Part shown: in pieces, positions 24,001-33,000 of the stretch
Numbering within the stretch: the stretch's first letter is position 1
How the letters are laid out: each line of letters begins with the position of its first letter
NCBI GenBank assembly: GCA_963524875.1
Contig: CAURHF010000008.1
Span: 2,977 to 66,976, forward strand
Source of the DNA: an uncultured Fusobacterium sp.
Lineage (GTDB): Bacteria > Fusobacteriota > Fusobacteriia > Fusobacteriales > Fusobacteriaceae
Length of the DNA: 64,000 nucleotides
Direction: 5' to 3'
Made by a program: the position numbers

Positions 24001-27000
24001 ATTAAGACCATTTTCACAAAACTATAAAGTAAGTGCAGGAAGAAAAATACCTATGGTATTCTTAAACCATGGACAACATAGAAAAGAAGAATTTGGTAAA
24101 AAATATAATGCAAAAATATTTAATAATGCAAAAGAAGAATTAGAAAGAATCTGTGATGTAAAAATTACTGATGAAAATTTAAAAAATGCATTTAAAGTTT
24201 ATAATGAAAATAGAGAAGAAAAAAGAAAATTTATAAAACTTGCTTCTAAACACCCACAAAGTATAAAAGCATCTGATAGATCTAATGTTTTAAAGAGCTC
24301 ATACTTCATGTTAAAAGATGAACATACAGCTTTATTAAAACAATTAAATCAAAAATTGGAAGCTTTACCAGAAGAACAATGGGATGGAGTAAGAGTTGTT
24401 ACAAGTGGAGTTATTACTGATAACCCAGGACTTTTAGAAGTATTTGATAACTATAAAGTATGTGTAGTTGCAGATGATGTGGCTCATGAATCAAGAGCAT
24501 TAAAAATTGATATAGATTTATCAATAGAAGATCCAATGTTAGCACTTGCTGATCAATTTGCTCGTATGGATGAAGATCCAATACTTTATGACCCTGATAT
24601 CTATAAAAGACCTAAATATGTATTAGACTTAGTAAAAGAAAATAATGCAGATGGTTGTCTATTATTTATGATGAACTTCAATGATACTGAAGAAATGGAA
24701 TATCCTTCATTAAAACAAGCATTTGATGCTGCTAAAGTTCCATTAATTAAAATGGGATACGATCAACAAATGGTAGACTTTGGGCAAGTTAAAACACAAC
24801 TTGAAACATTTAATGAATTAGTACAATTAAGTAGATTCTAGGAGGAGAAAAATGGAACAAAATATTTGGGAATATGATGACTTCATTTTTAAAGGTGATG
24901 AACTAAAAGGTATGACAGCAAAAGGTAAAGACAAAGTAAAAGCTGGAGGTCAAACTGATTTAGTAATTCCTGCAGTAACTCCTGATGGTCTACCTCTTAA
25001 AAAGATTGCAGATAATGCTTTTTACAGAAGAGGATTAACTTCTGTTGTAATTCCTGATACAGTAGAAAGTATTGGTTATGATGCTTTTGGAGTTTGTAAA
25101 TTAACAGAAGTTAAATTACCTGCTGCATTAGTAAATATAGAAGGTTTTGCTTTCTATAGAAATAAATTAGCTAAAGTTGAATTTGGAAGCAAAGTAACAA
25201 AAATAGAACCAAGTGCATTTGCAATGAATGAACTTACAGAAATTACTTTCCCTGAAACTTTAGAATACATAGGAGCATCTGCTTTCTTTAAAAATTCTTT
25301 AGAAACAGTAAGTTTTCCAAAATCTATAACTAAAATAGATATGTATGCTTTTAAAAAGAATAATATTCATAATGTAAAAGTTGCGAATTCAGTAGATTTA
25401 CATAATGCTGCATTTGAAACATTTACAACTATTGAAAGAGTTTAATTAACTTATACAGTAATAAAATAAAAGCTGTTGCAAATTTGCAACAGCTTATTTT
25501 TTTATAAATTTTTCAATACTTTCTTTCTTTACATAGAAAAATTCTTTTATAGATTTTTCTTCAAATAAATTATAATTCTTCTTTAACTCAGCTACAGCTA
25601 AATTTAGAATTTCTCCTCTTCTTATATTTTTAGCTAAACCTTGAAAAGCTCTCTCTAAAAAATCAATATCTTTATAGTTTAACATAACATTTTTATCATT
25701 TAACCAGTTAAAAGTTCTTTCAAAATCTTTTGGGAAGATATTTTTATTTTCTTTAACTTTATCTAAAATTAATTTTTCTATATTATCAATATTTTTATTA
25801 AATAAGTTATTGAAATTCTTAGAGAGAAAATGATCAATAAACATATCAGACACTATTCCTTTAAAAATTCCAAATTTTCCTGCCAATAACTCATTTAAAA
25901 GATTTTCTGTTCTATCAGAAGTCTTATCAATTATTCTATGTAATATAATACCTTCTTTTAAATTCTCTGAGAGTTCAATTTTTTCAACTAAGCCCTTATA
26001 GAAATCACCTGTAAAATTTCCATATAGAGTTTCTTTATTTGTATTTTCATCAATTTCAAGTGAAATCAATGAATGTCCTAAAAAATTCATGATAATCCCT
26101 TCTAAATAATGTTTTTTAATTTATGATGTTATCATATTAACACTTACTTTGTCAAGTAACCTATTCTTTAATATAAGTGGGGAACAAAAAATATAAATAA
26201 TTTTTAAAAATTTATAGTAATTTCAAGAATTCTAATTTTTTTAGGGAACAAATTTAAAGCTTGATTAATTCCTTGAATATTCTTTAAAAATTGTATATTA
26301 TATAAACAGATTAAAAGAAAATGAGGGGATAAAAATGAAAAAGGTTAGGTTTACAATTTCGGATTTTATGAATGAAATTATAAAGAGTGATTCAGAATAT
26401 TTTAAATTACAGATCGGTAAGATAGGAAATATGATATTTAACTACTATATAGATAAGAATTTGAATAAAGTTGAATTAGAAGATTCATCAGGTGAAATTA
26501 TACAATTTAACTTGAATAAAAGTAATGAAGAAATCTTTATGGATACTTTAATAAGAAATAAAATAGAAATAGAGGCAGAATATTGGAGAAATATATTTTT
26601 TACCTATATAAATAATTTAAGATACAAGAGGGAAGAAATACTATTTGAAAAAAATTTTAAAAATATTAAAAAAGCCCTAAAAGATGGAAATAAGATAAAA
26701 ATTAAATATCATAACCGTATAAGGCTTATTAATCCATATTTTATAAAGGTTTCAGACAGTGAAAATCGTTCATATTTGTTCTGTTATTGTGAGAAAAACA
26801 ATGATTATAGGAATTATAGAATATCTGAAATAGAAGAAATATGGTTTACTAATAAGAAAATTGAAGTAAAGGATAAAAAATACATTGATGAAGTATATAA
26901 AAACTTTGACCCTTTCTTATCATATAAAAATAGAGTGAAAGTTAAGTTTACAGAAAAAGGTTTAGAGTTATATGAGAAAGTCTTAACTAATAGACCTAGA

Positions 27001-30000: not shown

Positions 30001-33000
30001 CTAAAAGATTATTTGGACAATTTTTAACTTGGTTACAAGAAAAAGAAAATACAGTTTTTGTTGTTGCAACTGCTAATGATATAACCGCTTTTCCTCCTGA
30101 ATTTTTAAGAAAGGGAAGATTTGATGAAGTATTTTTTATAGATTTTCCTAATGAAGAAGAAAGAGAAAGAATATTTGAAATTCACTTAGAAAAAAGAGGA
30201 AAACTTACAGATGACATTGATATAAATAAATTAGCAAAGCAAACAGAAGGATATTGTGGAGCAGATATAGAAGAAGTTGTTAAAAATGCTGTTGAGAATA
30301 TTTTTATACTTGAAACAGAAAATGAAGAAGAAAAAGAAATAACAACTCAAGATTTATTAGAATCAGCTAAAAATATTGATTCATTAACAAATATTTTGGT
30401 GGATAAGATAGAAGTTTTAAAGAAAAGTTATGATAAATTTAAAATTAAATCAGCTTCTAAAAAATTACCTACAAGTCAAAGAATAAAGAAAAATAAAAAA
30501 GGAAAATCAGGAACTCCTACATTTAGAGATATGATAATAGTAAATGGAGGAAAATATACACCATCATTCTTTAATGAAGAAAGAGAAGTTTTTGATATAG
30601 AAGTGTGTAAATATCCAGTAACTCAAGATATGTGGATGGAAGTAATGGAAGAAAATCCATCTGAATTCAAAGGGGGAAGAAGACCAGTAGAAAGGGTTTC
30701 TTGGTGGGATGTCTTAGAATATTGCAATAAGTTAAGTGAAAAATATAACTTAGAACCTGTTTATGATTTAAGTAAAAAAGAAGAAGGGGTTTTAAAAATA
30801 AATCAATTAGGAGGAGAAGCAGAATATCCTAATATAGCAGATTTTAGAAAAACTGAAGGATTTAGATTACCTACAGAATTAGAATGGGAATGGTTTGCAA
30901 GAGGAGGAGAAATTGCTGTCCAAGATGGAACATTTAATTATATTTATTCAGGTAGTAATAATATAAATGAAGTAGCATGGTATGAAAAAAATTCAGGTAA
31001 ACAAACTCATGATGTAGGAACTAAAAAGCCAAATCAATTAGGATTATATGATTGTACTGGAAATATATGGGAGTGGTGCTATGATACGGATACTTCTGGA
31101 TACATATCAGAAGAAACATCTTATATATATGATGCAAGTCAAAATGGAAGAAGGCTAAAAGGGGGCTCTTGGTATCATAGTGAATATTATTTTTCTATTA
31201 GTGAAAGATATAGGTCCTATAATGCTTCAAAAGATTATTATTTTGGATTCCGTATAGTTAGAACTATTTAGATTTTTATACTATTAAATATATTCCCCTC
31301 TGGAAATGAGGGGAAATTTATTGGAATAAGGGGAGATATTTTAAATGCTTGAGAAATTAAAGGAATATTGGAATAAATATAAAAAATATATAATAGCAAT
31401 ACTTATTTTAATAATGGGAGTATTTTTATTAAATTTTATCTTTGTTATTACAGATTGGATTGCTGGAAAAGGTTTTAATTGGAAAGCAATTTTATATTCT
31501 CCTGTTTCTAATGAAGAATGGTTATCATTTATTGGAAATGGGATAGTAGGCTTGGCAACACTATTGTTGTTTTGGATAGCAAAGAAAAGCTTTGAAAATG
31601 AAAGAAATAAAGTAAAGTATGAAAATGAGATGAAGAAAATAGAAAAAGAAAAAGAAATAGTTGAGGAATATTTAAATACACTTGACATAAATGAAGTTTA
31701 TAACTTAGTTACTTTAACTTTTGGAACTTCATTTCAGAAAGATTTTAAGAGTGATAAGGAAATAATGAAAAATATTACTTCTAGTAGAATAGAATTCATA
31801 AAATGTATTAATTTAACAAAAATAAAATTAAATTACAATACAAATTTTAAGGTTTTAATAAAAAAAAATTCATTAGAAAATGAAGAAGAAGAGTGTGATA
31901 ACAAAAAATATAAAAGTTTAGAAAAAAATATAAACGATAAATTAAATTATTTATATGTTATACATACAAAAATTTTTGAAAAAATATTTAAGAAAATTAT
32001 CAAAGCTACTTACACTAATAGTTTAAAAGAAAGAAACGAAGAAATAAATTCAATCTTTTCAATAAAAGATAGTCAAATATCTAACCTTTTTTCAAAAATT
32101 TATAAAAAGTATGAAAAAAACTTATCTGATACAATAAAATTACAATTAGAAAAGGATATTAATAAAGGAGATTATAGATATCCATTTTATATTTGTTTAG
32201 ATTTAATAATAGATGAATTAATAGAGTATTTTGATAAAAGAGAAAAAGATGTTGAAGAAGAATTTAAAAAAGTAGTAAATAATAAATATTGATTATTAAT
32301 TATGAGGAGATATTGTTATGGATATGAAAATTTTAATCCCAACAGTTCTATCGATAATTTCAATAGTTGGAGGAATAGTAAACTTTTTTTATACAAGAAA
32401 AGAAAATAAAATAGGAATAATGTTTCAAAATTGGCAAGTGTATTTTGAAGAAAATAAGGAAAAAATAAGACAACAAGAAAAAATTACTGATAATATCTTT
32501 AATAAATTAAATAGTAGAGTAGGGCTAATTCCATATTTTAATATAATCTTAGATGATTCAAAAATTAAAGAAGAAAATGGGAGAATATACTTAGGAATTT
32601 CATTAATTAATATTGGAAAAGAATCTGCAACAAATGTTGGAATATGTTTAACAGAAGAAAGAAAGGAAGTTATAGTTGAAGGATATGATAAAAATCAAGG
32701 TGGTTATATTGTTTATAATTATTTAGATAAATACTATGCTATGGTAGGAGATAAAATAAGTTTTTCAATAGTAACTGATAGAAAAGAAAAAATAATGAAT
32801 GTATTTTTAAGATTTAAAATACAATACTACGATTTAATTGGAAATAGATATGAACAAGAATTTAGATTAGGCTTTTATGATGATTTTAATGGAAAGAATA
32901 AGACATATTATAATTTAAACAATATTTCAGATTTACCTAAATTAGTAGAAGAAAATAAATATAAATAGAGGTAATATAAAAAACTCTTGATTAGTAATAT

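Follow-up and report, generated by a model that had tools for sequence, protein, structure and literature searches.

The 64,000-nucleotide (nt) stretch of the Fusobacterium sp. contig CAURHF010000008.1 analyzed here (the window, whose coordinates are used throughout; L-numbers denote the other loci compared) contains a compact three-gene unit that, on balance, we are inclined to regard as a candidate sensor-motor-effector conflict system, most likely directed against phages or mobile elements. The unit encodes a WYL-domain protein (g1), a member of an uncharacterized membrane-protein family that we denote G2 (g2), and a Ycf46-type AAA+ ATPase fused to a lectin-like domain (g3), and spans positions 26335-31271 together with a hairpin at 31293-31315. 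Its features, with protein lengths in amino acids (aa), are the following.

26335-27183, + strand: g1, protein of 282 aa with a WYL domain, putative ligand-sensing regulator of core transcription
27176-28918, + strand: g2 = G2, uncharacterized membrane-protein family (580 aa)
27701-28075, + strand: core domain of G2, residues ~176-300, alpha-beta-beta-beta-alpha-beta fold in an AlphaFold2 model (pLDDT 81.5)
28196-28915, + strand: Gly/Ala-rich C-terminal region of G2, residues 341-580, putative membrane-inserting glycine zipper
28962-31271, + strand: g3, Ycf46-type AAA+ ATPase fused to a TvpA-like C-type-lectin-fold domain (769 aa)
30597-31268, + strand: C-type-lectin-fold (FGE-sulfatase/TvpA-like) domain of g3, predicted non-catalytic binding module
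31173-31244, + strand: hypervariable region of g3, residues 738-761, at the tip of the lectin domain
31293-31315, + strand: GC-rich hairpin TTCCCCTC-N7-GAGGGGAA, between g3 and the next gene (g4), 22 nt past the g3 stop

The association between G2 and the AAA+ ATPase extends far beyond Fusobacterium. A distribution scan with one genome per species yielded 80 loci from many phyla, in which open reading frames (ORFs) were called and searched with the window proteins. In 32 of the 38 closest non-Fusobacterium loci, G2 is encoded directly beside the AAA gene on the same strand (Clostridia, Paenibacillus, Bacteroidales, Brachyspira, Anaerobiospirillum, Pseudomonas, Aeromonas, Stenotrophomonas, and Chromatium), and in two more, including one from Methylococcales, it lies somewhat further upstream; the AAA genes of greater divergence, those of the cyanobacterial Ycf46 loci among them, are flanked by other genes. 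The window has the same layout, with g2 and g3 co-oriented, separated by 43 nt, and a fused FGE domain. The initial annotation of this DNA, in which five consecutive genes (g1-g5) were taken for a single system, had raised the question of co-occurrence outside the lineage: the AAA and glycine-zipper genes indeed pair widely, also in defense contexts, whereas g4 and g5 do not.

The putative binding module differs among these loci. The C-terminal extension of the AAA protein is FGE in Fusobacterium, HEAT/LRV in the gammaproteobacterial locus L039, and something else in other lineages. A third recurrent partner is a group of adaptors that share an N-terminal domain of ~100 aa, defined here with a hidden Markov model, and vary at their C-termini, which consist of Lcl_C/DUF1566 (another lectin-type fold), LRR_5, or an unknown region; often, there are two or three tandem paralogues, and in Clostridia, WYL-G2-AAA comes with a separate adaptor as the likely sensor. 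The adaptor N-terminal domain was not found in any examined locus in which the AAA protein has a fused C-terminal extension, namely, those of Fusobacterium and the gammaproteobacterial ones. Because the adaptor domain and the fused extension are mutually exclusive in the loci examined, it appears that the binding module is either fused to the motor or docked onto it.

In some Clostridia, directly 3' of G2-AAA, pairs of dynamin-family GTPases (~480-500 and 750-860 aa) are encoded in L008:6210-9957 and L011:13118-17084, and possibly, also in L007, L012, and L021. These pairs match LeoA of Eleos only weakly (1e-8). They were rejected as parts of the system and treated as neighbors, which may represent membrane-related defense or accessory functions.

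The motor of g3 matches the Pfam AAA family (E 3.4e-29; PF00004, classical, with AAA_lid_3) and is followed by an FGE-sulfatase match (8.9e-33); its best PDB relatives are the D2 domains of Cdc48/p97. Conservation across the family covers Walker A (G269-K275), Walker B (D328/E329), the pore loop (K301-Y302-V303-G304), and the arginines R383 and R386. This D2 domain is of the active type, whereas residues 1-210, as read from the sequence, form a degenerate AAA-like D1 domain without a Walker A/P-loop. In a library-wide HMMER search, residues 1-500 aligned with hundreds of proteins of ~500 aa, which occur alone or with varied N- or C-terminal extensions (LRV/HEAT, FGE, DUF2336, TPR, and others); Ycf46 is the name given in NCBI and UniRef to members of this family, including the L058, L025, and L018 homologues. 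When g3 was compared with the cyanobacterial loci L057 and L058 by tblastn, the E-values were 2e-86 and 3e-86, with 35-42% identity in the best segment. Judging by these alignments, the g3 motor is of the Ycf46 type: a degenerate AAA-like domain at the N-terminus is joined to a single active domain of the classical AAA kind, and the alignment with Ycf46 proteins runs from end to end.

An exact look-up of the g3 sequence returned no record, and the best 120 matches in protein searches with g3 and g2 were near-identical Fusobacterium proteins only; both the F. nucleatum group and F. pseudoperiodonticum have numerous g3 homologues. A PHROGs search of the window proteins gave a strong match to phrog_8638. 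Matches of g3 in phage databases are limited to the generic AAA domain except for a single Streptococcus satellite. This satellite phage, Javan368 (L087:5595-9548), carries a full-length Ycf46-type AAA protein, accompanied by a 573-aa protein with a C-terminal hydrophobic segment and a 154-aa protein, neither of which is related to G2 or the adaptors; these partners suggest that the AAA family serves as a hub to which several different sets of partners belong.

The C-terminal domain of g3, at first sight a formylglycine-generating enzyme (FGE), is, by its sequence, not such an enzyme. In catalytic FGEs, the cysteine pair sits in the C-terminal segment; the corresponding residues 734-769 of g3 (GGSWYHSEYYFSISERYRSYNASKDYYFGFRIVRTI) contain no cysteine, and because this segment lacks it, the catalytic pair is absent. 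The enzymatic assignment was therefore rejected, all the more so because the domain is far closer to TvpA, its best PDB match (2y3c; E 5.6e-40 over residues 44-258 of the domain), than to true FGEs (~1e-8). TvpA (PDB 2y3c) is the variable protein of a diversity-generating retroelement (DGR) of Treponema denticola, and the part of g3 that varies among strains lies at the site of the variable region of TvpA. Across 121 Fusobacterium orthologues, there are 73 distinct C-terminal variants, with a hypervariable stretch of 23-62 aa that is bounded by GGSW (734-737) and GFR(I/L)VRTI (762-769), and ~100% conservation of D2.

The nucleotide pattern of this variation is unusual. In five alleles of equal length, identity is 95-98% in the AAA part versus 35-74% in the 72-nt tip; outside the tip, most of the variable sites in the gene fall on third codon positions (161/231), whereas those in the tip are mostly first (21/24) and second (20/24) positions, and NNY codons make up 0.75-0.88 of the tip versus 0.40 elsewhere. 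Among four related alleles, 34 of the 44 variable tip sites have A in one or more alleles, whereas the invariant sites comprise 3 A and 25 non-A, an adenine bias with an odds ratio of 28 (p 2.6e-8), compared to 3.7 in the rest of the gene; the invariant tip codons (TGT, GTT, CGT) are largely free of A. With the inferred ancestor of the tip, NNNNSNCTVINRNSNNNTNRNKEY, as the putative template, this pattern resembles the footprint expected of adenine-directed DGR mutagenesis, that is, a DGR-like signature. Thus, the proposal of the initial annotation that the FGE domain is a sensor gains from the likeness to TvpA, the scrambled tip, and the adenine-biased variation.

The mechanism of diversification is less clear-cut. 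Between length classes, the tip alleles differ also by indels, which DGRs do not produce; the composition of the tip could, in part, be that of a binding site rich in Tyr, Ser, and Asn. A search of the 64-kb window for a repeat of the variable region was negative, as was one for a template repeat in seven Fusobacterium sequences (the window and six loci with +-10 kb flanks). In nine fetched Fusobacterium loci, none of the called genes matched a reverse transcriptase in Pfam, and when viral and metagenomic contigs were scanned with patterns for the template, the outcome was empty or an unrelated glycine-rich phage protein (L093). A candidate for the hairpin that follows DGR variable regions is the GC-rich one downstream of g3, which escaped the earlier reading of the locus: its 8-bp stem (-14.1 kcal/mol, z -2.1) lacks a U-tract, was flagged as terminator-like by our scan, and is retained in L001, L003, and L006 regardless of the next gene. 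This hairpin probably marks the end of the core unit and could equally be an attenuator/terminator or a DGR-type cruciform. Rather doubtful, if attractive, is the conjecture that the lectin tip is an actively hypermutating antigen receptor, diversified by an adenine-targeted DGR-type process acting in trans from the genome or a prophage, coupled to an unfoldase and driving G2. If it were true, a human oral, tumor-associated bacterium would possess a somatically diversifying immune receptor that drives a new family of membrane-anchored effectors, and one G2-AAA chassis would serve in different phyla, equipped with sensors of the LRR, HEAT, vWA, or lectin type.

The putative effector, G2, is a family of its own: neither Pfam, NCBIfam, PHROGs, nor PADLOC contains a match to the window protein, and the family profile matches no PDB sequence. 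Downstream of an N-terminal helical region, the core domain contains, in the family alignments, an invariant E194 and D231 and a near-invariant Q245-x-K247, which, in the AlphaFold2 model, map to alpha1, beta2, and beta3 in a PD-(D/E)xK-like placement. Most of the top PDB matches and many BFVD matches of this core in Foldseek are PD-(D/E)xK nucleases, namely, EcoT38I, Can2, Bax1, R2 endonuclease, RecU, VRR-NUC, and Mrr, none of them individually significant (best nuclease-type E-values 0.26 in PDB and 0.04-0.1 in BFVD), and one of the 18 G2 family members gives a weak match to Mrr_cat_2. A Foldseek search with a 345-residue G2 model found nothing, because the helices were modeled with low confidence; the core-only model produced the nuclease-like, non-significant signal. 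On the strength of the modeled fold and the placement of the conserved residues, it appears probable that G2 has a restriction-endonuclease-like core. The C-terminal tail is of an entirely different nature: it is 22% Gly, contains 28 small-xxx-small-xxx-small motifs versus 2 in the first 340 residues, and includes hydrophobic segments at 467-503 and 509-527 in a hydropathy scan. Weak matches to Gly-zipper_Omp, C19orf12, and YMGG were obtained for 10, 9, and 5, respectively, of the 18 members (the best at 1.6e-5).

The sole significant structural match of the G2 core is a protein of Bodo saltans virus, A0A2H4UU33 (BFVD; E 8.5e-6, TM 0.63, 25% identity). This 1,002-aa giant-virus protein is annotated as J-domain-containing, which ties the G2 core domain to the Hsp70 protein-remodeling ATPase system.

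The first gene of the unit matches the WYL domain (Pfam 2e-9; PADLOC WYL model 6e-22), with a WCX match of 19 bits, below the cutoff of 23.9, and no helix-turn-helix (HTH) detected by Pfam in residues 1-100; the proteins in the orthologous position in L008 and L094 carry HTH_11 and WYL (plus WCX). WYL genes lie upstream of the unit in Clostridia (L008, L022, L024, L029) and Pseudomonas (L094, L095), as well as in L097, and the two Pseudomonas loci, with WYL-G2-AAA::LRV, exactly mirror the arrangement in the window. The earlier suggestion of control by the WYL protein is in keeping with this recurrence. A G2 orthologue from a JGI metagenome (P0139; 698 aa, ~115 residues longer, with Pfam PF27000) may have arisen by fusion to the WYL gene located upstream or may reflect a different gene call.

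The genomic surroundings link the unit to mobile elements and defense. G2 is present on conjugative IncF plasmids of Klebsiella and Enterobacter; on pB16KP0157-2, a vWA-G2-AAA unit is flanked by insertion sequences (IS) and lies beside an AAA_15/AAA_21 gene pair. The vWA-G2-AAA arrangement occurs in just 3-4 of 5,426 complete E. coli genomes and, in E. coli ZF34, is located between BREX-1 (pglX, pglZ, brxL) and a block of Card1-like nuclease, vWA, PP2C, kinase, and DEAD helicase genes. A single G2 cluster at >=90% identity (that is, at least 90%) spans E. coli, several Vibrio species, Providencia, Aeromonas, and Pectobacterium, and because it spans these genera, recent horizontal transfer of G2 is indicated. 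In Pseudomonas, the unit neighbors a Tn7-like TniQ, and in Fusobacterium, toxin-antitoxin modules; the 107 neighbor proteins of G2-positive loci include some WYL, type I restriction, RhuM, and PADLOC candidate families, along with many housekeeping proteins.

In ZF34 (L089:13758-23761), the gene for the Card1-like endonuclease overlaps the AAA gene by 4 nt and is followed by genes for vWA, PP2C phosphatase, Ser/Thr kinase, and a 1,145-aa DEAD/DEAH helicase. This block, which is absent from the plasmid copy (L088), may belong to a larger composite system or to an adjacent one. The label 'Card1-like endonuclease' for G2 itself in E. coli was discarded, this annotation belonging to the gene after AAA.

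The delimitation of the unit to three genes departs from the five-gene operon of the initial annotation. The physical description of that operon was accurate: ORF reading recovers five co-directional genes on the + strand at 26335-32968, with an 8-nt overlap of g1 and g2 and gaps of 43, 73, and 25 nt thereafter (the longest ORF of G2 starts at 27161; 27176 is the start called in most orthologous loci). Pfam assigns WYL to g1 and AAA, AAA_lid_3, and FGE-sulfatase to g3, and no family to g2, g4, or g5. The remaining features of this block are as follows.

31345-32292, + strand: g4, lineage-specific gene occupying a slot of variable content (315 aa, with two hydrophobic segments near the N-terminus in a hydropathy scan)
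32318-32968, + strand: g5, lineage-specific partner of g4 (216 aa, one N-terminal hydrophobic segment in a hydropathy scan)
26273-26301, + strand: sigma-70-like promoter match TTGAAT-N17-TATTAT upstream of g1 (scan, 9/12 matches)
32979-33019, + strand: intrinsic terminator 3' of g5 (stem 32979-33014; 15-bp stem, -14 kcal/mol, z -4.1, U-run)

The claimed terminator is clearly present, its 15-bp stem leading into the U-run; a consensus terminator scanner overlooked it because the stem is AT-rich. The hexamers of the claimed promoter are likewise there, but with 68 such matches found versus 63.7 expected in shuffles, the match has no evidential weight, its density being that of shuffled sequence, and is plausible by position only.

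WYL-G2-AAA::FGE is constant in nine other Fusobacterium loci (L001-L006, L090-L092), and what follows it varies.

Window and L003-L006: g4 and g5
L090: a g4-like gene, then shorter ORFs (52 and 115 aa at the g5 position), then ParE
L001, L002, and L091: a DUF4238 protein
L092: unrelated ORFs and an AAA_21/AAA_15 ATPase, with a different left flank as well

Neither g4 nor g5 matches anything in Pfam, NCBIfam, PHROGs, or PADLOC; their relatives were found in F. nucleatum-group loci only, and none in the non-Fusobacterium loci examined or on plasmids. The GC content falls to 0.20-0.21 across g4, g5, and the adjacent toxin-antitoxin pair. The first three genes are treated as the unit because the downstream genes are swapped in sister strains while the hairpin stays, the GC content drops, and g4 and g5 are restricted to one lineage; g4 and g5, beyond the hairpin, would then probably be outside the core, as a cassette of their own within a variable island in which toxin-antitoxin modules abound. 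The tight spacing, the single strong terminator 3' of g5, the lack of a U-tract in the g3 hairpin, and the company of g4 and g5 in the window-like loci L003-L006 would instead fit cooperation of all five genes in one system, to which g4 and g5 would contribute further membrane effectors or anchors. Such cooperation is nevertheless very unlikely, considering that no non-Fusobacterium locus examined has g4 or g5, that DUF4238 takes their place in L001 and L091 and unrelated genes do so in L092, that L090 has only shorter ORFs at the g5 position, that the GC content drops precisely over g4, g5, and the toxin-antitoxin pair, and that the hairpin travels with g3 rather than with g4. The DUF4238 protein has no PADLOC match; a DUF4238 protein is reportedly a validated single-gene defense (Rousset et al.), and the term occurs in the respective preprint.

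The island itself extends from g3 to a kdsC-like gene (window 33076-34109; also L001, L090, L091, L092), and its cassettes differ by strain, including MNT/HepT, DUF6290, PBECR4, ParE, Gp49/HTH, DUF4238, DUF4325, and the AAA_21/AAA_15 ATPase. Its right border is a 180-aa ORF (34191-34733, - strand) beside the kdsC-like gene, retained in L003-L006, L091, and L092, for which Pfam, NCBIfam, and PHROGs contain no family. The flanks reported previously, acpH (ACP_PD), MNT/HepT, and the DUF6290 remnant, were recovered by Pfam in the described layout; the kdsC-like, ruvC, and mgtC genes on the right flank are assigned from orthologous loci with identical gene lengths. In the metagenomic Fusobacterium contig L092 (1072-7179), the left flank of the core consists of FtsZ and a 2,035-aa protein without a Pfam match in place of the hgd operon, so that either the core has moved or the flank was rearranged.

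On the left side of the window, acpH (25494-26090, - strand), with a bidirectional hairpin at 25470-25495, lies between an LRR_5 gene and the WYL gene. It is present also in F. pseudoperiodonticum L001 and L002 and absent from L003-L006, L090, and L091, so that the left edge of the system shows an insertion/deletion polymorphism. The LRR_5 gene (24852-25445, + strand) encodes a 197-aa BspA-type protein, is the last gene of the hgd operon, and in strains without acpH is located directly 5' of the WYL gene. LRR_5 repeats also serve as sensor modules of G2-AAA adaptors in other phyla (L013, L034), and the window protein initially clustered with the adaptors, through the LRR repeats only; it was not counted as a part because the adaptor N-terminal domain is absent, and it may be a detached sensor or a coincidence.

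In the scenario that we favor, g3 would form a hexamer, by analogy with such motors, and display six non-catalytic TvpA-like lectin domains, whose hypervariable tips (or LRR, HEAT, or vWA modules in other lineages) may recognize a fast-evolving ligand. Binding of the ligand would engage the Ycf46-type motor, and the ensuing mechanical work could remodel G2, the conserved output of the system, with its nuclease-like core in the cytosol and its glycine-zipper tail inserted in the membrane. Remodeled G2 might then damage the membrane and, possibly, nucleic acids, such that the infected cell is stopped, with expression of the unit, presumably, set by the WYL protein. Abortive infection and pore formation by g2, as put forward in the initial annotation, are conjecture.

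Several observations weigh against this scenario. The nuclease-like fold of G2 is not statistically established (the PDB E-value of 0.26 being the best), with Gln replacing the acidic residue of the (D/E)xK motif, and the window G2 itself has no Pfam glycine-zipper match. Only about a tenth of the 107 neighbors match defense-related families, and because the neighborhoods are mixed outside E. coli and plasmids, the defense-island signal is clear in Enterobacteria and modest elsewhere. In several Fusobacterium species, the core occupies one chromosomal site and looks vertically inherited, L092 being the exception. A non-immune role is conceivable, too, because the AAA family includes the cyanobacterial 'stress-responsive' Ycf46.

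That last point leads to housekeeping or stress proteostasis, whereby the Ycf46-type AAA+ ATPase, its membrane partner, and the adaptors would ensure quality control of the envelope or of membrane proteins. The naming of relatives as stress-responsive Ycf46, the many metabolic-gene neighbors, and the stable chromosomal site across Fusobacterium species are all compatible with such a function. Yet, it seems quite unlikely for a system that is so patchy (3-4 of 5,426 E. coli genomes), has recently been transferred between genera, is associated with plasmids, IS, and Tn7-like elements, adjoins BREX, and comes with WYL regulators; nor would the client-binding site of a housekeeping protein be expected to differ so thoroughly from strain to strain in a protein that is otherwise at least about 95% identical, and the cyanobacterial Ycf46 loci lack G2. 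A different division of labor is envisaged if the defense is non-abortive, with the motor unfolding or extracting an invader protein caught by the sensor, and G2 serving only as an anchor at the membrane, the entry site of phage DNA and proteins, or cutting incoming DNA. The conserved canonical threading pore loop and arginine fingers, the position of the sensors on the motor or on docking adaptors, like the substrate adaptors of Cdc48/ClpA, the nuclease likeness of the G2 core, and the pairing of the Streptococcus phage-satellite AAA with a different membrane protein would all be explicable in these terms, although a ~240-aa glycine-rich tail is far more elaborate than anchoring would require and the conservation of G2 equals that of the motor. 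We consider this variant unlikely; at the level of sequence, it is indistinguishable from the effector model. Finally, the location on conjugative IncF plasmids, the partial similarity of the motor to IetA models, and the toxin-antitoxin neighbors might be taken to indicate a mobile-element weapon or addiction module, involved in plasmid stabilization, entry exclusion, or IetAS-like anti-plasmid interference, as opposed to anti-phage defense. With most of the copies found being chromosomal, no IetS-like protease, an IteA score far below the cutoff, and a hypervariable lectin-type receptor that better suits recognition of diverse invaders, this possibility strikes us as extremely improbable.

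Should the sensor-motor-effector scenario be validated, the G2 membrane protein and the Ycf46-type AAA+ motor would constitute a widespread unnamed defense chassis that ranges over Fusobacteria, Clostridia, Bacteroidota, Spirochaetes, and many Proteobacteria, including IncF plasmids of Klebsiella, Enterobacter, and E. coli. This would offer a first functional entry point to the large Ycf46 family and to G2, a family without a Pfam entry. A modular sensor that is scrambled at its ligand-binding tip would make receptor-ligand specificity in bacterial immunity directly testable, and the scrambled tip opens the possibility that hypermutation is targeted without the DGR gene arrangement known so far. 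As a candidate barrier, the locus may hinder phage therapy and genetic manipulation in organisms of the F. nucleatum group.

The contention that the gene combination corresponds to no named system held up: PADLOC gives partial IetA matches to the AAA domain only and nothing for g2, g4, or g5, and the literature searched contains no named equivalent and no defense role for Ycf46. One named system for comparison is IetAS, reportedly described by Gao et al. in 2020 as the AAA+ ATPase IetA with the subtilase IetS. Both combine a classical AAA+ motor with a separate putative effector, and IetA accounts for the best PADLOC matches to g3 (7.8e-30, residues 230-507). These matches are restricted to the generic AAA domain, however, and the NCBIfam model IteA_antiphage scores 95.5 bits on g3 against a cutoff of 510; there is no peptidase domain in the five proteins or their neighbors, and g3 possesses, in addition, a degenerate D1 as well as a lectin domain. 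The Ycf46 family of cyanobacteria and plastids (COG0464-type) shares the ~500-aa architecture of degenerate plus active AAA, but the cyanobacterial L057 and L058 have no G2 partner, adaptor, or fused sensor. With regard to regulation, the unit is reminiscent of the WYL-regulated defense operons, namely, BrxR of BREX and CapW of CBASS (PMC9122588; bioRxiv 10.1101/2021.12.19.473356), in that the WYL gene comes first, upstream of and overlapping the system, and recurs across phyla; in contrast to these, the window protein has no detectable N-terminal HTH and a sub-cutoff WCX.

The closest parallels in logic are found among conflict systems with variable sensors. DGR-diversified C-type-lectin antigen sensors have been predicted on conflict NTPases of STAND and MoxR-vWA ternary systems (Kaur et al. 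2020, PMC7159879; Dore et al. 2024, PMC10907252). In common with these, g3 has a C-terminal FGE/C-type-lectin domain on an NTPase, variability confined to a C-terminal ligand-binding stretch, adenine-biased, Asn-codon-like substitutions, and an accompanying effector and adaptor logic. The NTPase, however, is a classical-clade Ycf46-type AAA+ rather than a STAND or MoxR protein; neither the 64 kb nor the +-10 kb in six other Fusobacterium loci yielded a reverse transcriptase, a template repeat, or Avd; the alleles also vary by indels; and the host is a unicellular oral anaerobe. Similarly, Avs/bNACHT STAND proteins combine a variable repeat or lectin sensor, which differs between homologues, with an NTPase and an effector, whereas g3 is a threading-type classical AAA+ ATPase with a pore loop, not a STAND switch, and the effector here is a separate membrane protein, not an N-terminal domain. 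Thus, the WYL-G2-AAA unit is neither IetAS, nor STAND/Avs, nor a MoxR-vWA ternary system, but its logic is common with the latter two.

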